This document shows positions 9,405-63,822 of a DNA stretch of 64,000 bases, in pieces. The stretch lies in contig JAKMFW010000100.1 of the NCBI GenBank assembly GCA_022425325.1, positions 1-64,000 of the forward strand, given 5' to 3'. Positions within the stretch are counted from its first letter, which is position 1, and every line of letters begins with the position of its first letter. The notes beneath the pieces are model-generated. The model searched no databases, was not told where the DNA came from, and was given only the letters and a program-made list of their open reading frames with translations. The DNA comes from Acidimicrobiales bacterium. Its GTDB lineage: Bacteria; Actinomycetota; Acidimicrobiia; Acidimicrobiales; Aldehydirespiratoraceae. Position numbers and translations under genes: made by a program.

Positions 9405-11165
9405 ATGCACGTTCATTTTGCCCGTACGAGCCTGGCGAGGCTGCTCGCCCTGCTGTTGGCCTTCGTGATGATCGCTGCGGCCTGTGGCGGGAGCGACGAC
9501 AGCGATGACAACGCTGCCGACACGCCGTCGGACAGCGACACCGGTAGCGACGAGTCGTCCGATGACGACGCTGGCGACGGCGACTCGGTCGTGCCGACCA
9601 TCACTGCGCCGGAAGAGGAGGAGGTTGCCGAGGAAGAGATCCAGCGCGGCGGCGTCCTTCGGGTCGCAATGGAGGCCGATGGCGACGGCATCAACCCGGT
9701 CGCCAACAACTTCGCGAACTCCGCCTACCTGATGGGCCAGTCGATCTTCGATCCGCTGTTCACGCTCGACCAGGACGGCAACTGGTTCCCGTATCTGGCG
9801 GAGTCCGCGAGCCCAGTTGAGGGCACGAGCTCGTGGCAGATCACGCTGCGTCAGGGGGTCACGTACCACGACGGTTCGGAGATGACCGCTGACGACATGA
9901 TTGCGGCGTTTGAGGCGCAGCTTGCCGATCCGATCATCTCGCTTGCGGTGGCTCCGTCGTTCCCGGCGGAGAACCGTGTTGAGCGGATCGATGACTACAC
10001 GGTGCAGTACAACCTGCTGCGCCCGTCGGCTCACTTCCCGACCAACCTGACCAGCCAGCTCGGCATGGTCCCGTCGGCAAGCTACATCGCCGCGGCGGCT
10101 GAGGATCCGACGATGGACCAGATGCCGATCGGGCAGGGTCCGTTCAAGATCGTCAGCCGCACCCAAGACGACAAGACCGTCGTCGAGCGCAACGAGGACT
10201 ACTGGCAGGGCACCGACAACATCTACCTCGACGGCATCGAATTCCTGCCGATCACCGACGCCGCGATCGCTGCCGAGCGTGTGGCCGCAGGAGACATTGA
10301 TCTCGTCGTGACGTCGAGTGCCGACGCAATCTTGACGCTGCGTGACGCCGAAGGTGTGAGCACCATCGAGAACGTCTACTCATCAGAGAACGACATCATG
10401 ATGAACACTCGGGCTGCGCCGTTCGACGATATCCGGGTGCGTCAGGCGCTGACCTACGCAACGGACCGTGAACGCCTCTCTTCGCTGATCAACCAGGGCA
10501 CGTCGCCGTTGGCCGACTCGATGTTCCACCCGGACCTCATCTGGAACAACCCTGACGTGGTTCAGGAGGGCAACATGCCTGAGCTGGCCGGCCCCCTGGT
10601 CGAGTCCTACTGCGCGGACGTGCCGGACAACTGCACCGACGGCAAGATCGACATGGAGCTCCAGTACTCGGGCCCGTCGGTGACTCAGACCCGTATCGCC
10701 GACATCCTCACTGCTGGTTGGGAGCCGTTCTTCAACGTCACTGAGCAGGAGTTGTTGCAGGACTCCCACATCCTTGAAGTCGCAATCGGCCAGTTCCAGG
10801 TCGTGACGTGGCGCCAGTTCGGTGCGGTCGAGCCTGACAACGAGGTTGTGTGGCTTGAGTGCGCCACCGCTGAGGGCTTCATCACGCTCAACTGGGTGCG
10901 TTGGTGCAGCCCGGAGCGCGATGAGTTGCTCTACGCCCAGCGCGCCACCGACGATCTCGACGCCCGCGTCGAGATGTGGCGTGAGATCCAGGCGGAGATG
11001 AACGAGTCCTACGCGTACATCTTCACCACCCACGCCAACTGGACCATCGGCTTCGGTGACCAGGTAAACAACCTGTGCGGACAGACCGGCCCAGGTGGAG
11101 AGACCCTGTTCTGTAACAACCAGGGACGGATGTTCTTCCACAACGTCTGGCTCGGCGAGGGCTGA
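9405..11165 (+). CDS. ABC transporter substrate-binding lipoprotein, family 5 (peptide/nickel, DppA/OppA-like)
   Basis: A signal peptide with a lipobox (IAAACGG) is followed by an acidic Ser/Asp-rich linker and then an SBP family 5 fold. I placed the start at MHVHFARTS (ATG at 9405). Confidence 0.8.
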   Translation: MHVHFARTSLARLLALLLAFVMIAAACGGSDDSDDNAADTPSDSDTGSDESSDDDAGDGDSVVPTITAPEEEEVAEEEIQRGGVLRVAMEADGDGINPVANNFANSAYLMGQSIFDPLFTLDQDGNWFPYLAESASPVEGTSSWQITLRQGVTYHDGSEMTADDMIAAFEAQLADPIISLAVAPSFPAENRVERIDDYTVQYNLLRPSAHFPTNLTSQLGMVPSASYIAAAAEDPTMDQMPIGQGPFKIVSRTQDDKTVVERNEDYWQGTDNIYLDGIEFLPITDAAIAAERVAAGDIDLVVTSSADAILTLRDAEGVSTIENVYSSENDIMMNTRAAPFDDIRVRQALTYATDRERLSSLINQGTSPLADSMFHPDLIWNNPDVVQEGNMPELAGPLVESYCADVPDNCTDGKIDMELQYSGPSVTQTRIADILTAGWEPFFNVTEQELLQDSHILEVAIGQFQVVTWRQFGAVEPDNEVVWLECATAEGFITLNWVRWCSPERDELLYAQRATDDLDARVEMWREIQAEMNESYAYIFTTHANWTIGFGDQVNNLCGQTGPGGETLFCNNQGRMFFHNVWLGEG

Positions 11166-11223
11166 TCCAAGCAAGCGGACGAATCGTCACCGGCAGCACA
11201 TCAAGATCTCGAGGAGTACGCAC

Positions 11224-12231
11224 GTGGCTCGTTTCATCGCACGCCGCGTCGTGCAGTTGATCCTGGTGTTGCTGTCGGTGACGTTCATCGCCTTCGGCGC
11301 CCTGAACTTTCTCGGCGACCCCCTCGTCAACATCGTCGGCCCGCTTGCGGCCATCGACTACTGCGACGAGGTGGAAGCGGGGCTCCGCGAGGACTCCTAC
11401 ACGTCCATCAACAACTCCAGGGGCGATTGCGAGATCATCGGTGAGGCCAAGGCTGATTTCGGTCTGGACAAGCCCGTCATTCAGCGGTACTTCACGTGGC
11501 TGGGCAACATCATCACCGGCGATCTCGGAACCTCGTTCCAGACCCAATTGCCGGTTAGTGAGATCATCGCCCAGAAGCTGCCGAAGTCACTGATGCTGAT
11601 GGTGATGGCCCAGATCATTGCGCTGGCCGTTGCGATCCCCGTTGGTGTGTATTCGGCCTATCGGGCGGGCAGAGCCGTCGATCGAGCGACCTCGGTGGCG
11701 TCGTTCGGTCTGCTCTCCATCCCGAACTTCGCGTTTGGCGTCATCGTCTTGCAGTTCTTCGCTCTGCGAAATCAATGGCTTCCCGCGTCCTTCGACGACA
11801 CGTCCATCGGAACGCGGATCCACTCACTCATCCTGCCGGCAACCGTTCTCGGTCTCGGTATCGCCGCGACCTACCAGCGCCTCCTGCGCACCGACCTCCT
11901 CACCACGTTGCAGGAGGACTTCGTGCACATGGCCCGCGCGAAGGGCATGACCGACCGTCACATCATGACCCGCCATGCGCTGCGACCCTCGCTGTTCTCA
12001 CTCATCACGGTGTTCGGCGTGAGCACCGGTGCGCTGATCGGCGGCTCGCTCGTGATCGAAGGCATCTTCTCGATTCCGGGCATCGGTTCGGAGATCGTCA
12101 CCGCCGTGGTCCGTGACGACTTCCCGGTCGTGCTCGGCTCGGTGGTCGTGATCGCAACCGGCTTCGTCGTGATCAACTTCTTCGTCGATCTCCTCTACAC
12201 CTGGCTCGATCCTCGGGTGCGTGCTTCATGA
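11224..12231 (+). CDS. ABC transporter permease (DppB/OppB-like)
   Basis: Six TM segments and the EAA-like motif (MARAKGMTDRHIMTRHALRPSL) identify it. The start GTG at 11224 follows a GAGGAG ribosome-binding site. Confidence 0.8.
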   Translation: MARFIARRVVQLILVLLSVTFIAFGALNFLGDPLVNIVGPLAAIDYCDEVEAGLREDSYTSINNSRGDCEIIGEAKADFGLDKPVIQRYFTWLGNIITGDLGTSFQTQLPVSEIIAQKLPKSLMLMVMAQIIALAVAIPVGVYSAYRAGRAVDRATSVASFGLLSIPNFAFGVIVLQFFALRNQWLPASFDDTSIGTRIHSLILPATVLGLGIAATYQRLLRTDLLTTLQEDFVHMARAKGMTDRHIMTRHALRPSLFSLITVFGVSTGALIGGSLVIEGIFSIPGIGSEIVTAVVRDDFPVVLGSVVVIATGFVVINFFVDLLYTWLDPRVRAS

Positions 12232-13118
12232 CCAACTCCGTTGCCTTCACCACCGTGGTAGATGACATCGACGACGAGGCGCTCGACGACGCCGTCAAGA
12301 AGCGGCTCGGATTCGGGTTCTGGGTCGCCATCTCCTGGATCGGGCTCGTCTCGCTCGCGGCGCTCCTCGCTCCGTGGCTGCCGATCGCTGATCCGAACGA
12401 GATCGCCAACGGTGCGCCACGCGATGGCATCCTCGGCGACAACTTTATGGGCACCGACGCGCTCGGACGCGATGTGTTTGCCCGCACGATCTGGGGAGCT
12501 CGGATTTCGCTCGGAGTTGGATTCCTCGGCATCCTTCTCGGGATCGTCGTCGGTGGTGCCATCGGGATCGCCGCCGGGTACTTCAAGGGCCTCACCGATC
12601 AGGTCATCAGTTTCGTGGTCTTCAGTCTCCTGTCGTTCCCGTCCCTCGTGCTGGCCCTGCTCATCACCGCATCGCTCAATCGCAGCTTCCTGACGGTGGC
12701 GATGACCCTCGGCATCGTCGGCATCGCCCCGATCAGTCGTCTCGCGCGCGCTACCACGATCCAGTTCGCCGAGCGCGAGTTTGTACAGGCAGCTCGAGTC
12801 ATCGGGGCCAAGAGCCGACGCATCATCATCAAGGAACTGCTGCCCAACGTTTTGGTTCCGATGGGTGCGCTCACGCTTCTCGGCATGGGTATTTCCATCG
12901 TCGCTGAGGGCGGCCTCGCCTTCCTTGGCCTCTCGGTCGAGGGTGAGGCGATCTCGTGGGGCAAGTCGATCGTCGATGGTTCCCAAACTCGCGATCTCAA
13001 CCAGAACTCGCACGTTGCCTTCGTGCCGATCTTCGCCATGTTCTTGACTGTGATGGCGCTGAACTTCGCCGGCGACCGGATCCGTGAATACACCGATGTC
13101 AGGGAGACGGCGTTCTGA
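12228..13118 (+). CDS. ABC transporter permease (DppC/OppC-like)
   Basis: It is a BPD-type TM permease. Its ATG overlaps the upstream stop. Confidence 0.8.
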   Translation: MTNSVAFTTVVDDIDDEALDDAVKKRLGFGFWVAISWIGLVSLAALLAPWLPIADPNEIANGAPRDGILGDNFMGTDALGRDVFARTIWGARISLGVGFLGILLGIVVGGAIGIAAGYFKGLTDQVISFVVFSLLSFPSLVLALLITASLNRSFLTVAMTLGIVGIAPISRLARATTIQFAEREFVQAARVIGAKSRRIIIKELLPNVLVPMGALTLLGMGISIVAEGGLAFLGLSVEGEAISWGKSIVDGSQTRDLNQNSHVAFVPIFAMFLTVMALNFAGDRIREYTDVRETAF

Positions 13119-54976: not shown

Positions 54977-56128
54977 ATGCTCTCGAGGTTCGACGACTAC
55001 CCGATCCACCAGACCCCCGACCCCGTTGCCCACCCGGCGACGAGCGACAAGGACGTCTACGAGCGGTATTGGTTCAACGGCTACTCGACCTCGGGCGACT
55101 TCTACCTCGGCGCCGGGGCGGCGCTCTACCAGCACCTGGGCGTGAAGGATGCCCATGTGTCGTTCATCCACGAGGGGCGGCAGTACGCATTCCACGTATC
55201 GGGACGGCGGAGCGACGAACCGAGCGACCTCACCATCGGGCCGTACTCCCTCGAGATCATCGAACCGATGCGTTCGTGCCGGATCACCGTGACCGAGAAC
55301 GACACCGACTTCACCTGCGACCTGCTGTGGGAAGGGCGTACCGGCAATGTCGAGGAACCCCGTCATCATCTCGGTCGAGGTCTTCGCAAGATCATGGACA
55401 CGACCCGGTTCACCCAACTCGGCCGGTGGACGGGATGGGTCCAGTTCGGCGATGTTCGGATCGAACTCGACCCGTCGGAGGTCGTCGGCACCAAGGATCG
55501 TTCGTGGGGGGTCCGGCCGCTCATCGGTGGCGACACCCGTGGCGCGCCGGCGGCCTCGCAGATGGGCGGCATTTTCTTCCTCTGGGCGCCGTTGAACTTC
55601 GACGACCTCTGCCTGCACTACCAATTGTTCGACGACAATGTCGGCCGTCCGCTCTTCCAGGTCGGTGCTCGGCTCCCGGTGTACGGCTCACCCGATGAGC
55701 TTCCCGGCGTCGAGGACCCGGCGGTCGAGCACATGCGCAATCTCGAACACGAGGTGACGTTCGCCTCCGGCAATCGCATGATCACCGGCGCGACGATCGC
55801 GATGACCTCGGTGGCCGATGGCGCCCGCCACGAGGTCCGACTCGAACCGATCTTCACCTTCCGGATGAAGGGGATCGGCTACACCCACCCCATCTGGGTT
55901 CACGGCAAGTGGCACGACGAACTCGCGATGGCGAGCGAGTCGTGGGCACTCGACGATGTCGACGACACGGCGTACGAGAACCAGCATTGTCAGCACCTCG
56001 TGCGAGCCACCTACACCGACGGTGCCGGGGTCGAGCGAACCGGTATCGGTGTGCTCGAACAGAACATTCTCGGCCCATATGCGCCCTACGGACTCGAGGG
56101 GTTCTTCGCCGCCCCGACCTACGACTGA
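54977..56128 (+). CDS. Conserved hypothetical protein (383 aa), no recognized domain
   Basis: A long GC3-rich ORF starts MLSRFDDYPIHQTPDP. It is Trp/Gly-rich with a beta-sandwich-like composition, and I recognise no known catalytic motif. Confidence 0.55.
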   Translation: MLSRFDDYPIHQTPDPVAHPATSDKDVYERYWFNGYSTSGDFYLGAGAALYQHLGVKDAHVSFIHEGRQYAFHVSGRRSDEPSDLTIGPYSLEIIEPMRSCRITVTENDTDFTCDLLWEGRTGNVEEPRHHLGRGLRKIMDTTRFTQLGRWTGWVQFGDVRIELDPSEVVGTKDRSWGVRPLIGGDTRGAPAASQMGGIFFLWAPLNFDDLCLHYQLFDDNVGRPLFQVGARLPVYGSPDELPGVEDPAVEHMRNLEHEVTFASGNRMITGATIAMTSVADGARHEVRLEPIFTFRMKGIGYTHPIWVHGKWHDELAMASESWALDDVDDTAYENQHCQHLVRATYTDGAGVERTGIGVLEQNILGPYAPYGLEGFFAAPTYD

Positions 56129-56231: not shown

Positions 56232-57125
56232 GTGCACGACTACGACGAGTTCGGGCTGTTCCACGAGAACGCCGCCGAATACGACCTGCCGTTCGCTGCG
56301 CCACCGTCCGTGCGACGGGAACGCATCGAGTTACCATCCGGCCTCGGCATCTCGGCGCTGGTGTGGGGCAAGGGTGACCCCGAACTGGTGCTGGTCCACG
56401 GTGGCGCCCAGAACGCCCATACCTGGGACACGGTGGCCATGGCGCTCGGACGTCCGCTCGTGGCGATCGACCTCCCCGGACACGGCCACAGTGACCACCG
56501 ACCAGCCCACGACTACACACCGACCTCGATGGCGGCCGACCTCGCCATCGCGATCGAGCGCCTGGCGCCGGCCGCCGAGGCGGTCGTCGGCATGTCGCTC
56601 GGCGGGATGACCTCGATCTGTCTGGCTGCAGATCACCCACACCTCGTTCGCCGCCTCGGTGTCGTCGATGTCACCCCGGGAACCGATCACGCCAAGGCCG
56701 AGCCGATCATCACGTTCGTCGATGGTCCCGAAGTGTTCGAGTCGTTCCAGGCGATGCTCGATCGCACGATCGAGTTCAACCCGGGGCGGAGCGAGTCGAG
56801 CTTGCGTCGGGGGATCCTCCACAACGCGAAGCCGCTTCCCGACGGCAGCTGGACGTGGCGGTACGACCGCATGCGCGACTGGAAGGTCGGCGGCGATGCA
56901 GCGCCGTCGTTCGAGGACCTGTGGGGCAAGGTCGACCTGGTCCAAGTCCCAATCACCCTGTGGCAGGGCGGAAACTGGAGTGTGATCGACGACGAAGACG
57001 TCGCCGAGTGGATGCGTCGCCGCCCCGACACGGTTCACGTCGTGGTCGACGGTGCCGGGCACTCGATCCAAGGCGACAAACCGCTCGAGATGGCGGCTCT
57101 GATCGAGGCGCTGATGACCCGATGA
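56232..57125 (+). CDS. Alpha/beta-fold hydrolase
   Basis: It has an HGG oxyanion motif (LVHGGAQNAH), the nucleophile elbow GMSLGG and a C-terminal catalytic His (GAGHSIQ). It has a GTG start. Confidence 0.75.
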   Translation: MHDYDEFGLFHENAAEYDLPFAAPPSVRRERIELPSGLGISALVWGKGDPELVLVHGGAQNAHTWDTVAMALGRPLVAIDLPGHGHSDHRPAHDYTPTSMAADLAIAIERLAPAAEAVVGMSLGGMTSICLAADHPHLVRRLGVVDVTPGTDHAKAEPIITFVDGPEVFESFQAMLDRTIEFNPGRSESSLRRGILHNAKPLPDGSWTWRYDRMRDWKVGGDAAPSFEDLWGKVDLVQVPITLWQGGNWSVIDDEDVAEWMRRRPDTVHVVVDGAGHSIQGDKPLEMAALIEALMTR

Positions 57126-58219
57126 CCTCCACCGACGGCGACACCCGATTCGTCAACCTCATGACGCCGGCCCGGTTCGGCCGACTCGAACTCCGAAATC
57201 GCGTCGTGATGGCGCCGATGACCCGCTCACGAGCAACCCCCGACGGAGCGGTCACCGACATCATGGTCGAGTACTACCGCCAGCGAGCCGGTGCCGGGAT
57301 GATCATCACCGAGGGCGTGTATCCGTCCGAGGCCGGCAAGGGCTATTGCCGGACGCCGGGGTTGGTGAGCAGCGATCACGCCGCCGGGTGGCGACGGGTC
57401 ACCGATGCGGTTCATGCCGAGGGCGGCACGATCGTGATGCAGATGATGCACGTCGGCCGGGTCGCGGTGGCGGCTAACAAGGCGGCCGGTTCCGAGACGG
57501 TTGCGCCTTCGGCGGTCGTTGCTCGTCTGCGGATGTACACCGATGTCGACGGCGGCACTATGCAGCCCTGCGAGCCGCCTCGGGACCTCGACGCCGATGA
57601 GATCGCCGCCGTGATCGCCGACTATGCGCGCAGCACGGAACTCGCGTTCGAGGCCGGCTTCGATGGCGTCGAACTTCACGGCACCAGCGGCTACCTGCCC
57701 GCCCAGTTCCTATCGACCGGAACCAACCATCGCGACGACGACTGGGGCGGGTCGGTCGCCGGCCGGATCCGCTTCTTCGTCGAGGTGTCGAGCGCAATGG
57801 CGGACGTCGACGGCGCAGACCGCATCGGCTTTCGGATCTGTCCCGGCAACCCCTACAACGATCTCCACGACGACGATCCGGAGGAGACATTCCGCGCCCT
57901 GCTGGCTGCGCTTGACCCGCTCGGACTCGCGTACTGCCACACGCTCCGTCTGCCGACAGGGCCGGTCGACAACGAGGCACTGTGTCGCCAGGGGTTCTCG
58001 GGCCCGCTGATCATCAACGACAGTTACGAGCCAGCTGAGGCGAACCAGGCCCTCGCCGAGGGACGCGGCGATGCCGTTGCGTTCGGACGGCGTTTCATCA
58101 CCAACCCGGACCTCGTCGATCGCATCGCCGGCGGGCACGAGTTGGCGTCCACCCGCGCCGACCACATCTACGACCCCGGCCCACAGGGCTACATCGATTT
58201 CCCGACCCGGTCGGACTGA
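57122..58219 (+). CDS. NADH:flavin oxidoreductase / Old Yellow Enzyme family (alkene reductase)
   Basis: It has the OYE N-terminus (LRNRVVMAPMTRSRA), catalytic His pairs and TIM-barrel FMN motifs (GFDGVELHGTSGYL). Its ATG overlaps the upstream TGA. Confidence 0.85.
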   Translation: MTSTDGDTRFVNLMTPARFGRLELRNRVVMAPMTRSRATPDGAVTDIMVEYYRQRAGAGMIITEGVYPSEAGKGYCRTPGLVSSDHAAGWRRVTDAVHAEGGTIVMQMMHVGRVAVAANKAAGSETVAPSAVVARLRMYTDVDGGTMQPCEPPRDLDADEIAAVIADYARSTELAFEAGFDGVELHGTSGYLPAQFLSTGTNHRDDDWGGSVAGRIRFFVEVSSAMADVDGADRIGFRICPGNPYNDLHDDDPEETFRALLAALDPLGLAYCHTLRLPTGPVDNEALCRQGFSGPLIINDSYEPAEANQALAEGRGDAVAFGRRFITNPDLVDRIAGGHELASTRADHIYDPGPQGYIDFPTRSD

Positions 58220-58273: not shown

Positions 58274-59785
58274 TCAGAGCTCGCCGCGATCCAGGCCGAC
58301 CAGTACCTCGGCCGCCCGTTGGCGAGTCGCCTCGAGGTCGGCGAGTCGGCGCATGCCGGCGAGCTGCTGGCCCAGCCGGGCATTGCCCTTCAGCTGGTGC
58401 TCATTGCGGGCGAGGAAGTCCCAGTAGAGCGAGGTGAACGGGCAGGCGTCATCCCCCGTGCGCTTCTTCGGGTTGAACCGGCAGCCCTTGCAGTGGTCGC
58501 TCATCTTGTTGATGTACGCCCCGCCGGCCGCATAGGGCTTGGTGGCCATGCGTCCGCCGTCGGCGTGCAACGCCATGCCGATCACATTGGGCAGCATCAC
58601 CCATTCGGCGCCGTCGATGAAGTTCGCCCACATCCATTCCGTGAGGGCCCAGGGTTCGACACCGGTGAGCAGTGAGAAGTTGCCGATCACCATCAGCCGT
58701 TCGATGTGATGGGCATAGGCCCGGTCGTGGATGCCCTGCACGACCGACGACACGCATGCCATCTCGGTGGGGGCATCGCCGGTGAACGATGGTGGCACCG
58801 GGCGGTGGGCCTCCAGTTGGTTCTCGGCGCGGTATTCAGGTCCGAAGAACCAGTAGAGACCCCAGACGTACTCCCGCCAGCCCATCACCTGGCGAATGAA
58901 GCCCTCGACACTGTTGATCGGGGCCCGACCCTCTCGATACGCGACCTCGGCCGCCCGGACCACCTCCATCGGATCCAGCAGGCCGATGTTCATCGCGCTG
59001 CTGAGCACACTGTGGGCGAGCTTCCATTCGGCCGCGAGCATGGCGTCCTCGTGGGCACCGAAGCCCGGCAGTCCTTCGTCGACGAAGCGCTGCAGTCGTT
59101 CGAGCGCCTGTGCCCGGGTGACCGGCCAGCGGCCATCGGGAGCGGCCCCCCAGAGTGCGACGTCGTCGCTCGCTTCCAGCTCGGTCATCACGTCACGGTC
59201 GATGGCATCGAGCGGGAAAAGTTCGAGGGTTGGCCACGCCCGCCCGTCCTTGGGTGGCGGCTCGCGGTTCTCGTGGTCGAAGTTCCATGTCCCGCCGGCG
59301 GGTTCGTCGCCGTCCATCAAGACGTCGAGATCGATGCGCTGCCGGCGGTAGAAATCCTCCATCCGGATGCGTTTCCGGCCCTCGGCCCACTCGCCAAACT
59401 CGCGGTAATCGGTGATGAAGAACGTGTTGGTCGAGAGTTCGACTCCGAGCGCTTCGAGCCGGGTGACGGCGTCGTGACTCGACGGCGAGGTCGCCAGGAC
59501 CCGTTCGACCCCGAACTCGTCGCTGTGGGCTCGCAGCCCCGCAGCGAGCGTCGGTGCCCGCCGGTGGTCGATATCGAACCCCTCCGCTTCGAGTTCGGCG
59601 GCGAAGTGCCGCATCGCGGAGATCACCATGTGGGCCCGCTGGCGATGCCACCGGTGGCGGCCGAGAATCGAGTCGCTCTCGACGAGTAGGACTCGACAGG
59701 TTTCGGGGGTGTGGTCGGCGAGCACGCCGGCGGTACGACGCAGCTGGTCACCGAGGACCCAGACCGTGGGACGAGCGTCGGTCAC
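58274..59785 (-). CDS. FeS-BCP-type cryptochrome/photolyase family protein ((6-4) photolyase PhrB/CryB-like) with a [4Fe-4S]-binding Cys tetrad
   Basis: It has four Cys with 88/3/13 spacing (MACVSS ... DHCKGC ... DDAC), exactly matching the FeS-BCP cluster ligands. I placed the start at a GTG (VTDARPTVWVLGDQL), which overlaps the upstream gene stop (GTGA). Confidence 0.85.
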   Translation of the reverse strand: MTDARPTVWVLGDQLRRTAGVLADHTPETCRVLLVESDSILGRHRWHRQRAHMVISAMRHFAAELEAEGFDIDHRRAPTLAAGLRAHSDEFGVERVLATSPSSHDAVTRLEALGVELSTNTFFITDYREFGEWAEGRKRIRMEDFYRRQRIDLDVLMDGDEPAGGTWNFDHENREPPPKDGRAWPTLELFPLDAIDRDVMTELEASDDVALWGAAPDGRWPVTRAQALERLQRFVDEGLPGFGAHEDAMLAAEWKLAHSVLSSAMNIGLLDPMEVVRAAEVAYREGRAPINSVEGFIRQVMGWREYVWGLYWFFGPEYRAENQLEAHRPVPPSFTGDAPTEMACVSSVVQGIHDRAYAHHIERLMVIGNFSLLTGVEPWALTEWMWANFIDGAEWVMLPNVIGMALHADGGRMATKPYAAGGAYINKMSDHCKGCRFNPKKRTGDDACPFTSLYWDFLARNEHQLKGNARLGQQLAGMRRLADLEATRQRAAEVLVGLDRGEL

Positions 59786-60243
59786 GCGACGGCCTCGATC
59801 ATGAACAGGGCGAGCACCCCTCGGATGGTCCAGCCGATGGTGCGGATCCAGTTCGTGTGCACGAGCCGGTCGGCGACAATGGGATTCCATCCGTGTTCGA
59901 GCCGCCCGTGGGCGGGTACTTGGAGGGTGATGGTCGACAGGTGGACGCCTGCGAGCACCAGCCCGGCGATGAGGGGCAGGGTGCGGGTCAGACCGTCGGG
60001 CGGGGCGAAAAAGAGCCACAGGGTGGCGACGCCTTCGACGAGCATCGCCGGACCGACGACGAGGGAGATGAGGCGGGTGTGGGCCGCCTCGTACGCAACG
60101 AAACCGTCCTCGCCGACCCGGGCGAACAATGGGTAGTGGACGACCTGGATGATCCAGATCAGCCCGACGAGAAACCAGGTCGCCGCGGCGTGGACAAGGG
60201 TGACGGTCACCTCTTCATGGTCGACCGGATCGTCGAGCGTCAA
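59782..60243 (-). CDS. Hypothetical small integral membrane protein coupled between the Mo-oxidoreductase and the photolyase
   Basis: It is about 150 aa with 4 TM helices. A candidate TTG start at 60243 overlaps the oxidoreductase TGA (TTGA), and a GTG at 60210 is the alternative. Its stop overlaps the photolyase GTG. Confidence 0.45.
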   Translation of the reverse strand: MTLDDPVDHEEVTVTLVHAAATWFLVGLIWIIQVVHYPLFARVGEDGFVAYEAAHTRLISLVVGPAMLVEGVATLWLFFAPPDGLTRTLPLIAGLVLAGVHLSTITLQVPAHGRLEHGWNPIVADRLVHTNWIRTIGWTIRGVLALFMIEAVA

Positions 60244-62243
60244 ACAACCTCGATGTGCACCCACGTGTCGTGGAATGCTGCCGATCCCGTGTCGTCGTCG
60301 GGTACGGCTGGGTTGGTGAGCGCGTTGACCGCCCGCCCCTCTGGAGTCGACGAATGCCCCCAACCGAACGGTAGTGCGACGAGGCCGGGCTGGACCCGGT
60401 CGCTGACGGTGGCTTCAACGGTAAGTGAGCCGCGCTCGTTGTGGACCCGAACACGCCCGCCGTCGGTCACACCGAGCGCCGATGCATCGATCGGATGAAC
60501 CTCGAGCCGAGGATGGGGCGGCGTTGGCAGGTGTGCGGGGAACTGTGCGTAATTCGCGTTGAGGAAGGCGACGTGTTGCTTCAGGCTGATCAGCTGGAAC
60601 GGCGCCTCGGGTTCGGCGATGTCGATGTCGAGTGGACCAAGCGTGAAGGTGGTGTCGGCATGGGGGCGCGTGCCGGGGTCGATCGCGAACCGGGCCCAGC
60701 CATCATCGACGAGCCGTTCCCACGTGATGCCGTCGAGCATCGGGTGCTCGTTCTCCAGCAGGCCACGGATCAGGTCCTCGTCGGACTCGTGGTGCTCGGG
60801 GGCGTCGAGACCGAGTTCGGTGGCGAGCAGTCGGAAGATCTCGTTGTTGGGTTTGGCCTCGCCCATCGGGGCAATCGCCGGTCGGTTGAGCGCGACGTTG
60901 AGATGGCCCCATGCCGGCGCAAGATCGAGATGCTCGATCTGGGTGGTCGCAGGAAGGACGAGGTCGGCGTGACGAGCGGTGTCGGTCAGGAACTGCTCCG
61001 CCACGACCGTGAAGAGATTCTCGCGGCGGAGACCCTCGATGATGCGGTTCTGATCGGGAGCGATGACCGCCGGGTTGCTGTTGTGGACGAACAAGGCCTC
61101 GATCGGTGGATCGATCGTGGGGTCGGTGAGCACCTCGCCGAGGCGGGCCATATTGAAGCTTCGAGCGGGTGGCGCGAGCCGGGCTTCCTCGGTGTCGAGG
61201 CCGAAAGCTTCCTCCCACCAGACCTGGGTCGAACGGGCGAGCCCGCCACCCGCATCCCGCCAGGCCCCGGTCACGGTCGGCAACATGGCGATCGCACGCA
61301 TGATCTCGCGACCGTTGCCCCGATGTTCGGGGCCGACGAGTGAGCGGACGGCCGCCGGCCTGACGTTGGCGAACCGATGGGCCACGGCAACGACCTCGTC
61401 AGCGGGGATACCGGTGCGTGCCTCGGTGGTCAGGGGTGTCGCATCCGCGACGGATACCAGAAGGTCGGTGGCATCGGTGGTGTGTTCGGCGAGCCAGGTC
61501 GGGTCGAGCAGGCCGTCGCGATCCATCACGTGGATCAGTCCGGCGACGAGGGCGACGTCGGAGCCCGGCCGTAACTGCAAGAAGCGATCGGCTCGCTCGG
61601 CTGTCGCCGTGCGCACCGGATCAACGACGATCACCTCGGCGCCGGCCTCGCGGGCTTGTTCGATCGTCGTCCAGAGGTGCCGGTTGGTCACAAAGGTGTT
61701 GGTGCCCCACAAGATCACCGTGCGAGCAAGATGGAGGTCTTCCGGGTCGATGCCGCGGGGTGTGCCGAGGACGTCGGCGGCTCCGAGCCAGGCGGTCACG
61801 CCGCAGAGATGTCGCCGCACATCGGAGGTGCCGAGGGCAGCGAAGAAGCGGCGAGCGAGGATGCCTTTCTGAATGACACCCTGCGTGCCGTCGAAGGAGT
61901 AGGGAAGGATCGCCGCCGGGCCCGACTGGGCGATGATCGAACGGAAGCGCTCACCGATCTCGGCGACGGCGTCGTCCCAGGTGACCGGTGTGAACTCGCC
62001 GGAACCCTTCGGTCCGGTTCGTCTCAGCGGCGTGAGGATCCGGTCGGGGTGATGTACTCGATCAAGGAAGCGGTTGACCTTGGGGCACAACTGGCCCTTG
62101 GTGGTGGGGTGGTCGGCGAGTCCACGAAGGGCAACGGCTCGACCGTCCTCCACGGTGACCTCCCACACGCACGTGTCGGGGCAGTCGTGATGACACGCGC
62201 CGCGGACGACTCCTGCTCGCACCGGGCCAACGGAGCGTTTCAC
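60240..62243 (-). CDS. Molybdopterin (MopB-superfamily) oxidoreductase with an N-terminal [4Fe-4S] motif
   Basis: The CHHDCPDTC (Cx2Cx3C) N-terminal cluster motif is followed by MGD-binding domains. It is about 667 aa, and the start (a GTG at 62243 or 62222) is uncertain. Confidence 0.8.
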   Translation of the reverse strand: MKRSVGPVRAGVVRGACHHDCPDTCVWEVTVEDGRAVALRGLADHPTTKGQLCPKVNRFLDRVHHPDRILTPLRRTGPKGSGEFTPVTWDDAVAEIGERFRSIIAQSGPAAILPYSFDGTQGVIQKGILARRFFAALGTSDVRRHLCGVTAWLGAADVLGTPRGIDPEDLHLARTVILWGTNTFVTNRHLWTTIEQAREAGAEVIVVDPVRTATAERADRFLQLRPGSDVALVAGLIHVMDRDGLLDPTWLAEHTTDATDLLVSVADATPLTTEARTGIPADEVVAVAHRFANVRPAAVRSLVGPEHRGNGREIMRAIAMLPTVTGAWRDAGGGLARSTQVWWEEAFGLDTEEARLAPPARSFNMARLGEVLTDPTIDPPIEALFVHNSNPAVIAPDQNRIIEGLRRENLFTVVAEQFLTDTARHADLVLPATTQIEHLDLAPAWGHLNVALNRPAIAPMGEAKPNNEIFRLLATELGLDAPEHHESDEDLIRGLLENEHPMLDGITWERLVDDGWARFAIDPGTRPHADTTFTLGPLDIDIAEPEAPFQLISLKQHVAFLNANYAQFPAHLPTPPHPRLEVHPIDASALGVTDGGRVRVHNERGSLTVEATVSDRVQPGLVALPFGWGHSSTPEGRAVNALTNPAVPDDDTGSAAFHDTWVHIEVV

Positions 62244-62259
62244 CGCGCGACCGGCCGAC

Positions 62260-63000
62260 TCAAGACGCCGGGTCCATGAGGCGGAATGCCTCGCCGAGTC
62301 CGACACCACCAGTTCGCCCGTGGGTGCGGGCCTCGCGTTCAGTTCGCTCACGGAACGCGGCTGCCTGGGTGCCATCGTCGTCGGCAGCGATCACCATCGT
62401 CGTCTCGAACTGGCTCTCGTGAGCGAGCAGCGCATCCACCTTGGCGTCGACATGTCGCTGCTCGATGCGCTCGACATGATCGGGCTCCTCACACTCGAAC
62501 AGAAGAAGGGCTCGTGGACGGTGGTGGTTCAGGCCGTCGGCCATGTGCTCGCGGTGGTAGTGCGGATCACGGGCGGCAACCACGGCATCGACGGTGAGGA
62601 AACCGGCGTTGCGATGGTCGGGGTGCATGCGCCACCGGCGCCAGGGGTCGTGGCCGAGCACGATGTCGGGGGTGGTCTCACGGATCACCCGGGCGACCCG
62701 CCCCCGCAGCTCGACCGTGTTGGCGAGTTCGCCGTCGACTTCGCCGAGGAAGTGCACCTGGGCGTCGGGGTGGATACGACGGGCGGCCTCTCGTTGTTCG
62801 GCCTGCCGGCGAGCGATGAGGACGTCGGTGTCGGCATCGACATCCCACGTTCCTTTGGACCCGTCAGTGCAGATCAGGAGATGGATCGCAGCGCCGGCGG
62901 CGCCCCACTTGGCAAGGGTGCCGCCGCACTCGAACTCGATGTCGTCGGGATGGGCACCAACCGCAAGCGCGCTGGTCGGCACGGGCAGATCGACACGCAT
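62260..63000 (-). CDS. PIG-L/LmbE-family N-acetylglucosaminyl deacetylase-like protein
   Basis: It has the metal-binding motif AHPDDIE near the N-terminus and an HxxH region. Confidence 0.75.
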   Translation of the reverse strand: MRVDLPVPTSALAVGAHPDDIEFECGGTLAKWGAAGAAIHLLICTDGSKGTWDVDADTDVLIARRQAEQREAARRIHPDAQVHFLGEVDGELANTVELRGRVARVIRETTPDIVLGHDPWRRWRMHPDHRNAGFLTVDAVVAARDPHYHREHMADGLNHHRPRALLLFECEEPDHVERIEQRHVDAKVDALLAHESQFETTMVIAADDDGTQAAAFRERTEREARTHGRTGGVGLGEAFRLMDPAS

Positions 63001-63002
63001 CG

Positions 63003-63581
63003 TCAGGATCCTTCCACCTGGAGGCGGGCAAGGTCGCCGGGATCGTCGACGTCGAGTGCAAGCGAGGGGTCGTCGACGACGGTGATCTCGAGTCCGAGGC
63101 GCTCAGCCTCGGCACAGTGGGCGGCGAACGAACCGGGCCCGTAGTGGAATTCGAAGCCCAACCCGAGCGGGATCGACAACACATTGCTGCCGTCGCGCGC
63201 GTGGTCGGGCGCAATGGCGAGGCCGGGTCCGTCGACCACTCGAAGGTCGTCGGCGAGCGGCAGGTCGGCGTGGGCGACGATCACCCGGCTCGGCGGATCG
63301 TCCTCGGTGGCGACAAGAGCGATGGCCGCGTCAATACTTTCGTTGAGTCCGTTGACGGCGGGGGCGAGCCCGTTGGCGCCCAGACGCTCGGCCCAGCGGA
63401 GCACGTCGGCGTCGTCGCTCACGACGTGCACCGGAAGATCTCGTGCTGCTCGGACGACCCGTTCCGCCATCGCCATTGCAAGGCGCCGACGATCGGTGGG
63501 GGACAACACGCCGGCGAGGCGAGTCTTGGCGTCGTCGAACGACCGGAGCGGGATCAGCACGGCGGCGTCGGTGGCGACCAC
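63003..63581 (-). CDS. fbiD: 2-phospho-L-lactate/phosphoenolpyruvate guanylyltransferase (CofC/FbiD, F420 biosynthesis)
   Basis: The N-terminus AVLIPLRSFDDAKTRLAGVLS matches the CofC/FbiD family. It lies divergent from the gpsA-like remnant, as in mycobacterial gene order. Confidence 0.65.
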   Translation of the reverse strand: MVATDAAVLIPLRSFDDAKTRLAGVLSPTDRRRLAMAMAERVVRAARDLPVHVVSDDADVLRWAERLGANGLAPAVNGLNESIDAAIALVATEDDPPSRVIVAHADLPLADDLRVVDGPGLAIAPDHARDGSNVLSIPLGLGFEFHYGPGSFAAHCAEAERLGLEITVVDDPSLALDVDDPGDLARLQVEGS

Positions 63582-63603: not shown

Positions 63604-63822
63604 ATGTCCATGCGTGTGGCCGTCGTCGGCGCCGGATCATGGGGCACCACGGTCGCCCATCTGGCTCGTAACTCGATCGTGTGCAAGCTGGCCGAGGCCA
63701 ACGGCGTGTACACGCCGATCGCCGACCAGATGCAGGCATGCGTCGAAGAGGGTCGCACCGCCCTCGAGGCCTATGCCGGTCTCGTCAACACCCCTGCCGC
63801 CCGAGAGATCGATCCCCACTAG
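63604..63822 (+). pseudogene. gpsA: gpsA remnant: glycerol-3-phosphate dehydrogenase N-terminus fused in-frame to its C-terminal helices, with about 250 central codons missing
   Basis: The 72-aa ORF has MSMRVAVVGAGSWGTTVAHLARNS, the GpsA Rossmann N-terminus. This is joined directly to VCKLAEANGVYTPIADQMQACVEEGRTALEAYAGLV, which resembles the GpsA C-terminal segment. Confidence 0.45.

Follow-up and report, generated by a model that had tools for sequence, protein, structure and literature searches.

A cluster of five minus-strand genes at positions 58274–63581 of contig JAKMFW010000100.1, from an Acidimicrobiales bacterium, raises the question of whether F420 biosynthesis, a molybdenum enzyme, and light-dependent DNA repair are joined in one pathway or are neighbors by descent. 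The analyzed stretch, referred to as the window, comprises the first 64,000 nucleotides of the contig. The cluster contains fbiD, an LmbE-like gene, a MopB oxidoreductase gene, a gene for a small membrane protein designated mem, and a photolyase gene (phr). We favor, at a probability of about 0.6, a mosaic of three independently travelling modules, fbiD–LmbE, MopB, and mem–phr, in which the link between mem and phr is the sole conserved functional one. The F420 and molybdenum genes are best read as neighbors by descent, not as pathway partners.

The cluster starts with fbiD (also named cofC; 63003..63581, 192 residues, GTG start), followed by the gene of an LmbE/PIG-L metal-dependent deacetylase (62260..63000, 246 residues, PF02585) and that of a cytoplasmic MopB molybdopterin oxidoreductase (60240..62243, 667 residues, GTG start; PF04879, PF00384, and PF01568). 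The fourth gene, mem (59782..60243, 153 residues, TTG start), encodes a protein with four transmembrane (4-TM) helices. The last gene, phr (58274..59785, 503 residues, GTG start; PF04244), encodes an iron–sulfur bacterial cryptochrome/photolyase (FeS-BCP) of the (6-4) type. The longest open reading frames (ORFs) for MopB and phr, of 711 and 581 residues, are too long, and both homology and the related loci favor the shorter starts.

The junctions are tight. fbiD and LmbE are joined as TGA-CG-ATG with a gap of 2 nt, and LmbE and MopB are separated by 16 nt. MopB overlaps mem by 4 nt in a TTGA, and mem overlaps phr by 4 nt in a GTGA shared by the stop and start codons. All these features had been proposed in an initial annotation of this DNA and agree with the window sequence. 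Domain scans likewise support its identification of fbiD, LmbE/PIG-L, MopB, and the FeS-BCP photolyase. The annotation had also named separate promoters or terminators between the genes as a check on co-transcription. A scan for the sigma-70 consensus detects no promoter-like site between the five genes, and a terminator scan yields one weak hairpin, inside mem, which is fewer than shuffled sequences predict; both scans have little power at ~67% GC. With all genes co-directional and no internal signal above expectation, the layout is that of a single operon.

The same gene order is found in loci L089, L093–L096, L020, and L029, while the contig of L097 stops inside mem (L numbers denote surveyed loci). 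These relatives include loci with LmbE identities of 96%, 78–80%, and lower, and the recurrence of the order suggests that the packing is more than chance. A promoter ahead of fbiD probably drives all five genes as one transcript. The tight junctions support this, among them a 12-nt junction between LmbE and mem in loci L113–L116. The overlap of their codons suggests that mem and phr are probably also translationally coupled.

The linkage of mem and photolyases extends far beyond the relatives of the window. At least 581 relatives of mem were found in contigs representing one genome per species, and the best 80 loci were examined. ORFs within 5 kb of mem were clustered, the cluster representatives were scanned against Pfam, and the families were mapped back to the loci. 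The 80 loci belong to Acidimicrobiia, Rubrobacter, Planctomycetota including Phycisphaerae, Acidobacteriota, Myxococcota, Bacteroidota, and candidate phyla. Of these genomes, 28 hold 36 photolyase-family genes, all within 4.1 kb of mem. For 34 of them the distance is at most 2.5 kb, and for the other two it is 2.5–5 kb; no photolyase-family gene was found 5–10 kb from mem in the 437 kb surveyed around these loci. In 18 loci the distance is below 300 nt. The GTGA overlap of mem and phr noted in the initial annotation is thus one instance of a conserved link, which is seen in 28 of 80 mem-seeded genomes and in all 13 informative loci of a second survey described below.

The photolyases near mem belong to several classes. 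FeS-BCPs are found in 20 loci, and the others are class I enzymes (PF00875 plus PF03441), short proteins of ~410 residues that match only FAD_binding_7, and proteins with weak PF00875 matches. The FAD_binding_7-only proteins resemble the "short photolyase-like" class described previously (PMC8476157). The relative orientation also varies. The photolyase gene is co-directional and downstream of mem in the clade of the window and in the Phycisphaerales loci L050, L057, L071, and L076, divergent at 110–137 nt in L018, L019, and L024, and convergent in L036, L041, and L055. Such differences in class and orientation suggest repeated, independent juxtaposition of photolyases with mem. Among relatives of the window, the mem/phr junction stays between −4 and +30 nt, and the overlap or near-overlap is kept at mem identities of 49–99%.

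A second survey was seeded with LmbE. The best 80 metagenome loci (L084–L163; 51–99% LmbE identity) were probed with all five proteins over 10-kb flanks. fbiD lies directly upstream of LmbE in 79 of the 80 loci, with gaps of 2–75 nt, whatever comes after. mem follows LmbE in only 17 loci, and wherever the contig extends far enough, in 13 loci, phr comes directly after mem. Around 60 of the 80 loci contain fbiD–LmbE without mem–phr. In L101 and L102, for example, a convergent gene for an old yellow enzyme (OYE) lies 8 nt beyond LmbE. In L113–L116 (67% LmbE identity), LmbE is followed by mem–phr without MopB. The OYE gene of L101 and L102 corresponds to the one beside the photolyase in the window, so the arrangement in which fbiD–LmbE faces OYE looks basal, and mem–phr, with or without MopB, looks like an insert. 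On these comparisons, fbiD–LmbE is evidently an old conserved pair and a separate module.

Both proteins of the pair appear to be ordinary members of their families. FbiD matches PF01983 at 89.9 bits and the equivalog model TIGR03552 at 133.8 bits (cutoff 105), which identifies it as FbiD/CofC, the guanylyltransferase of F420 biosynthesis. The LmbE protein matches PF02585 at 94 bits (cutoff 28.2) and contains the metal-binding motifs AHPDD and HPDH. It scores below the equivalog cutoffs of BshB1 (97.1 versus 182.5), MshB (44.2 versus 224), and Mca (34.7 versus 277), and also below that of BshB2. Its closest solved structure is a diacetylchitobiose deacetylase (E = 6e-26). Among the papers searched, none deals with fbiD together with LmbE. 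The pairing is apparently undescribed and could reflect either a role of LmbE beside F420 biosynthesis or plain lineage synteny. The locus can be compared with fbiD of Mycobacterium tuberculosis (Rv2983), which is located next to gpsA. In the window, fbiD is likewise divergent from a gpsA-derived ORF. The two loci differ in that gpsA is only a 72-residue remnant in the window and that fbiD is followed by the conserved LmbE-like gene.

The MopB protein matches PF04879, PF00384, and PF01568 at 37.8, 128.5, and 83.6 bits, all above cutoff, and appears to be a regular member of the MopB family. Its N-terminal cluster motif is formed by C17, C21, C25, and C53 and reads Cx3Cx3C-x27-C, not Cx2Cx3C as initially annotated. 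The protein reaches no NCBIfam equivalog; its best match is TIGR01591, formate dehydrogenase alpha, at 227 bits against a cutoff of 666. The closest solved structures are of the FdhF type, and the second-best is the alpha subunit of an F420-dependent formate dehydrogenase (E = 1e-43). In formate dehydrogenases, the Cys or Sec residue that ligates molybdenum is followed by His. The candidate ligand in MopB, Cys147, precedes Gly, and the Cys/Sec–His catalytic pair is missing. With the equivalog score also low, the protein does not qualify as an FdhF-type formate dehydrogenase, and its likeness to these enzymes is best regarded as generic.

MopB is present in the window, L089 (96% LmbE identity), L093–L097 (78–80%), L020, and L029. 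The gene is missing from L004, L005, L084–L088, and L090, which are 94–99% identical to the window, and from L113–L116 (67%). Only two of the 80 mem-seeded genomes, those of L020 and L029, possess it. The close strains without MopB have a spacer of 98 nt between LmbE and mem that retains both ends of the gene. About 28 nt remain of the 5′ end (in L085, 29 of 31 nt are identical to window 62246..62216). At the 3′ end some 40 nt are left (in L085, 39 of 40 nt are identical to 60278..60239), among them the GAGG ribosome-binding site that precedes the mem TTG. The missing part is a clean segment of ~1.94 kb internal to MopB, at ~62215..60279. More distant relatives have MopB 12–16 nt after LmbE (L093, L096, and L020) or 81 nt after it (L094). 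Since the spacer keeps both gene ends and distant relatives keep the gene, MopB is ancestral to this subclade and was lost at least once by deletion, not inserted. The loss left fbiD–LmbE–mem–phr intact, and MopB is therefore dispensable to the photolyase module. The sister strains with and without MopB offer a natural comparison for whether the molybdenum enzyme is needed.

The photolyase matches PF04244, the N-terminal domain of deoxyribodipyrimidine photolyase-related proteins (DPRP), at 167.6 bits. It aligns over its full length (residues 8–499) with PhrB of Agrobacterium (4DJA, E = 1e-119) and CryB of Rhodobacter (3ZXS, E = 1e-116). The four cysteines that would coordinate the [4Fe-4S] cluster, C344, C432, C435, and C448, show the 88/3/13 spacing, as the initial annotation had pointed out, and share it with PhrB and CryB. 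phr thus encodes, by homology, an FeS-BCP or (6-4)-type photolyase that is an ordinary member of the known family. It differs from PhrB and CryB in that its gene is probably translationally coupled to that of a conserved 4-TM protein, at the end of an fbiD–LmbE–MopB cluster. The papers searched contain no description of a 4-TM partner protein for a photolyase.

FbiD, LmbE, MopB, and the photolyase, to judge by their sequences, are all ordinary members of known families; mem is not placed in any. The window protein matches no Pfam or NCBIfam model, and a profile built from the alignment of mem homologs found no PDB match below E = 0.2. The family comprises 3,984 cluster representatives at 50% identity (E ≤ 1e-3), has no Pfam model, and seems, as a photolyase-associated 4-TM family, to be undescribed, whereas the five-gene order seems to be a lineage-specific mosaic. 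The start position of mem is not certain. The TTG at 60243 is preceded by a GAGG 4 nt upstream and is also chosen in the metagenome annotation. The alternative GTG at 60210 would give a protein of 142 residues and a gap of 29 nt to MopB instead of an overlap, and many homologs of 135–149 residues are compatible with it.

The AlphaFold2 model of mem is a four-helix bundle with a pLDDT of 91.9. Nine residues, W30, Q33, Y37, P38, E70, T104, P110, R134, and W138, are invariant among 78 mem sequences, and H36, H55, H112, N131, and R141 are nearly so. Lys and Arg residues average 2.3 in loop 1–2, 2.7 in loop 3–4, and 2.2 at the start of TM4, compared with 0.1 at the N-terminus and 0.9 in loop 2–3. 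Following the positive-inside rule, we infer that the conserved, His-rich loops 1–2 and 3–4 face the cytoplasm and that both termini lie outside.

Two families of membrane proteins are weakly similar to mem. Matches to PF08592 (Anthrone_oxy/DUF1772) occur in 25 of the 78 members (best E = 2e-4, ~17 bits versus 27.3) and to PF03653 (UPF0093/HemJ) in 11 (best 21.4 bits versus 34.2). The alignments have a consistent register, and all are below the gathering cutoff; we treat them as signs of remote relatedness, not of membership. DUF1772/anthrone oxygenase and HemJ proteins share with mem a size of ~140 residues and four transmembrane helices. The motifs QVVHYPLF and TNWxRTxxW are specific to the mem family and set it apart from both. 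Both anthrone oxygenases and HemJ oxidize planar aromatic substrates at the membrane. None of the papers searched links DUF1772 with a photolyase.

Several mem proteins are fused to other domains (P0161, P0157, P0261, and L040). C-terminal fusions include an AhpC/TSA peroxiredoxin (P0161; L040 10001–10927) and a lipocalin (P0157), and one family protein has an N-terminal AhpC/TSA_2 domain. Fusion to peroxiredoxin and lipocalin domains is in keeping with a context of oxidative stress and with a mem C-terminus that points outward. An apparent fusion of mem to an FeS-BCP, P0237, was dismissed as a frameshift artefact. It is a singleton, with no other of 2,647 matches spanning both domains, and it comes from a long-read contig with an uncalled stretch of 740 nt at the expected 3′ end of the photolyase gene.

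The neighbors of mem point in the same direction as its fusions. An amine-oxidase flavoprotein (PF01593) is found beside mem in nine loci (10 matches), with gaps of 0–38 nt in six. Other recurring neighbors are heliorhodopsin, DUF2071 proteins, MpaB-type oxygenases, and short-chain dehydrogenases/reductases (SDRs). The RpoE–ChrR regulon of Rhodobacter and Pseudomonas, which responds to photo-oxidative stress, includes phrB, an amine-oxidase flavoprotein, an SDR, and cfa (PMC5507510), and it overlaps with the neighbors of mem and with its lipocalin and peroxiredoxin fusions. The cluster differs from that system in several respects. No RpoE/ChrR pair is located beside it, the hosts are Actinomycetota and Planctomycetota, and the regulon as described does not list the mem family (PMC5507510). 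Operons of heliorhodopsin and photolyase have also been reported (PMC11109279; PMC9769723), and the heliorhodopsin TfHeR binds and stimulates a photolyase (PMC9769723). Like mem, TfHeR is a membrane protein whose gene shares an operon with a photolyase gene. Unlike heliorhodopsin, mem has four transmembrane helices, no retinal lysine, and no rhodopsin fold, and it has no match to the membrane families DUF2177 and DUF2238, which are reported beside heliorhodopsin (PMC11109279).

Within the mosaic, fbiD–LmbE would be the old pair that ends against a convergent OYE gene in the simplest relatives. MopB would be an accessory cassette that the ancestor of the subclade carried between LmbE and mem and that close sister strains later lost. 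mem–phr would be a light-damage module that pairs an FeS-BCP photolyase, through translational coupling, with a small 4-TM protein. mem itself probably acts as a redox or oxygenase-type membrane protein in the response to light and photo-oxidative stress, co-produced with photolyases. This reading draws on its flavoprotein and oxidoreductase partners, its peroxiredoxin and lipocalin fusions, its remote relatives among anthrone oxygenases and HemJ, and the overlap of its partners with the RpoE–ChrR regulon (PMC5507510) and with heliorhodopsin neighborhoods (PMC11109279).

The alternative that the locus itself invites is a single light- and redox-linked pathway. In this view, a deazaflavin cofactor or antenna would come from fbiD together with LmbE, and electrons would reach the FeS-BCP from the molybdenum enzyme. 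The operon-like packing of all five genes, the inheritance of their order in the loci listed above, and the similarity of MopB to an F420-dependent formate dehydrogenase speak for it, but we consider it very improbable. Gene co-occurrence across genomes does not delineate a single functional pathway. fbiD–LmbE occurs without mem–phr in most LmbE-seeded loci, mem–phr is found without fbiD–LmbE in 76 of the 80 mem-seeded genomes, and MopB has been deleted in strains 94–99% identical that retain the photolyase. The similarity of MopB to FdhF is generic, and the top families elsewhere in the window are housekeeping ones that include no further F420 or light genes. The antenna of FeS-BCPs is usually 6,7-dimethyl-8-ribityllumazine, not 8-hydroxy-5-deazaflavin (PMC8476157). 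The biochemistry also disfavors fbiD as a source of antenna. FbiD makes enolpyruvyl-diphospho-5′-guanosine (EPPG), the phospho-donor that is joined to F0 to yield F420, and F0 is the antenna form of deazaflavin. As FbiD acts after F0 exists, fbiD is implausible as an antenna supplier, and a deazaflavin-antenna role for it is unlikely. Of the linkage suggested by the initial annotation, the operon packing, the inherited order, and the link between mem and phr hold, but the functional tie of the photolyase to F420 biosynthesis and the molybdenum enzyme, including antenna supply, is not supported by the distribution data or the points above. That part of the locus is ordinary.

Other alternatives concern mem and phr themselves, for which the initial annotation had raised a membrane-anchored FeS-BCP complex. 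mem might be a direct physical partner of the photolyase, serving, by analogy with TfHeR, as an anchor or as a regulatory or electron-donating subunit that keeps the flavin adenine dinucleotide (FAD) reduced or positions the enzyme. The GTGA overlap suggests stoichiometric co-translation, the junction stays tight in relatives, 18 loci have mem within 300 nt of a photolyase-family gene, and the prediction places the conserved face of mem on the cytoplasmic side, open to a docking photolyase. There is a precedent in TfHeR (PMC9769723), and P0237 would have been a further argument had it not been discounted. We nevertheless regard this partnership as doubtful. mem is found near at least four photolyase classes, near amine oxidases, Gfo/Idh/MocA oxidoreductases, and SDRs, and also alone, a pattern that co-regulation fits better. 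Moreover, with the C-terminus of mem predicted outside the cell, a C-terminal photolyase fusion such as the frameshift-affected singleton P0237 makes no sense. At the other extreme, the adjacency could be meaningless if mem–phr had landed between convergent genes and the association went back to common descent in a few lineages. L101 and L102 reveal the insertion site between LmbE and OYE, many of the 80 loci come from related Acidimicrobiia or Planctomycetota, and most mem genes lack a nearby photolyase. This, too, is improbable in our view, as the association spans phyla, photolyase classes, and orientations, all 36 photolyase-family genes lie within 4.1 kb of mem with none in the 437 kb of outer flank, and the near-overlap with phr persists at 49–99% mem identity.

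Some observations weigh against the mosaic with a dedicated mem–phr link. Photolyases are missing near 52 of the 80 mem genes, and the link is frequent, not obligate. Three copies of mem on Deinococcus plasmids stand alone, annotated as "hypothetical protein" and without a photolyase neighbor; among annotated plasmids, these and one Rhizobium record, unannotated, are the four mem matches. The 80 loci are phylogenetically related, and the counts exceed the number of separate events. Finally, the tight fbiD–LmbE–(MopB)–mem–phr packing is kept in at least four sub-lineages, and there may be a selective benefit from co-expressing mem–phr with fbiD–LmbE.

Photolyases are usually regarded as self-sufficient soluble enzymes, and heliorhodopsin is, to our knowledge, the sole membrane protein so far reported to assist one. 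A bolder but rather unlikely proposal is that the mem family is a dedicated photoreactivation accessory of multiple phyla. It would possibly hold a metal or haem at its cytoplasmic His/Glu site and either bind several photolyase classes or provide or regenerate a requirement of these enzymes, for instance electrons that keep FAD reduced. If so, photorepair in vivo would depend on mem. Under the mosaic reading as well, mem, present in several phyla with four photolyase classes nearby, is a concrete candidate for a component still lacking from the picture of how bacteria respond to light damage.

Further observations were made on the surroundings of mem. Heliorhodopsin genes lie ~0.1–2.3 kb from mem in L007, L010, L016, and L061. 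In L007 and L010, an FeS-BCP gene is located on the other side of mem, forming a small light-related island in Acidimicrobiia; L016 and L061 have heliorhodopsin but no FeS-BCP beside mem. L078 contains an 825-residue ORF right after mem (10447–12924, plus strand) in which PF00875 is joined to PF01593, together with one FeS-BCP and two class I photolyases.

Eleven planctomycete-type loci without a photolyase (L011, L027, L034, L039, L045, L056, L068, L074, L075, L077, and L083) share a core of a minus-strand glutamyl-tRNA synthetase (GluRS) gene, mem, CorA, and type III glutamine synthetase (GSIII). CorA is placed between mem and GSIII in nine of the eleven, and CorA or GSIII is undetected in four. 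Glutamine synthetase is a known heliorhodopsin partner, and these loci may represent another light-linked context. A Gfo/Idh/MocA oxidoreductase gene is found near mem in about six other photolyase-less loci (L012, L032, L037, L051, L060, and L062), from Acidobacteriota, Myxococcota, Bradymonadia, and Gemmataceae. The count derives from the Pfam scan of neighbors, and which ORF of ~420 residues downstream of mem is the oxidoreductase was deduced from size and position.

The cluster is flanked on both sides by plus-strand genes. Downstream, it faces the convergent gene of an OYE-type NADH:flavin oxidoreductase (57122..58219; PF00724, 236 bits). A 383-residue ORF with no Pfam match (54977–56128, plus strand) is located upstream of an alpha/beta-hydrolase gene and the OYE gene. 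The upstream boundary is the 72-residue gpsA remnant (63604..63822), which is divergent from fbiD. It combines the N-terminal Rossmann motif of GpsA with a short C-terminal-like tail; its residues 5–22 align to positions 2–19 of PF01210 with a sub-threshold E-value of 9.5e-4. No ORF of 70 or more residues occupies this position in relatives such as L004. As only 22 nt separate the remnant from the start of fbiD, the fbiD promoter must lie in the remnant or beyond it. The rest of the window is occupied by housekeeping genes, including gatA/B, ligA, ilvBC, mnmA, aroA, otsA, and ABC transporters, and its top family matches include no further F420 or light-related families.

The host genome of the cluster belongs to marine or aquatic Acidimicrobiia. 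The genomes closest to the window are L004 and L005, metagenome-assembled genomes of marine Acidimicrobiaceae, and identical sequence is also found on metagenome scaffolds. One such scaffold, L001, has an assembly gap at 2215–2224 that falls inside fbiD (window 63240–63310). This gap accounts for the 78-residue CofC fragment in the metagenome annotation.

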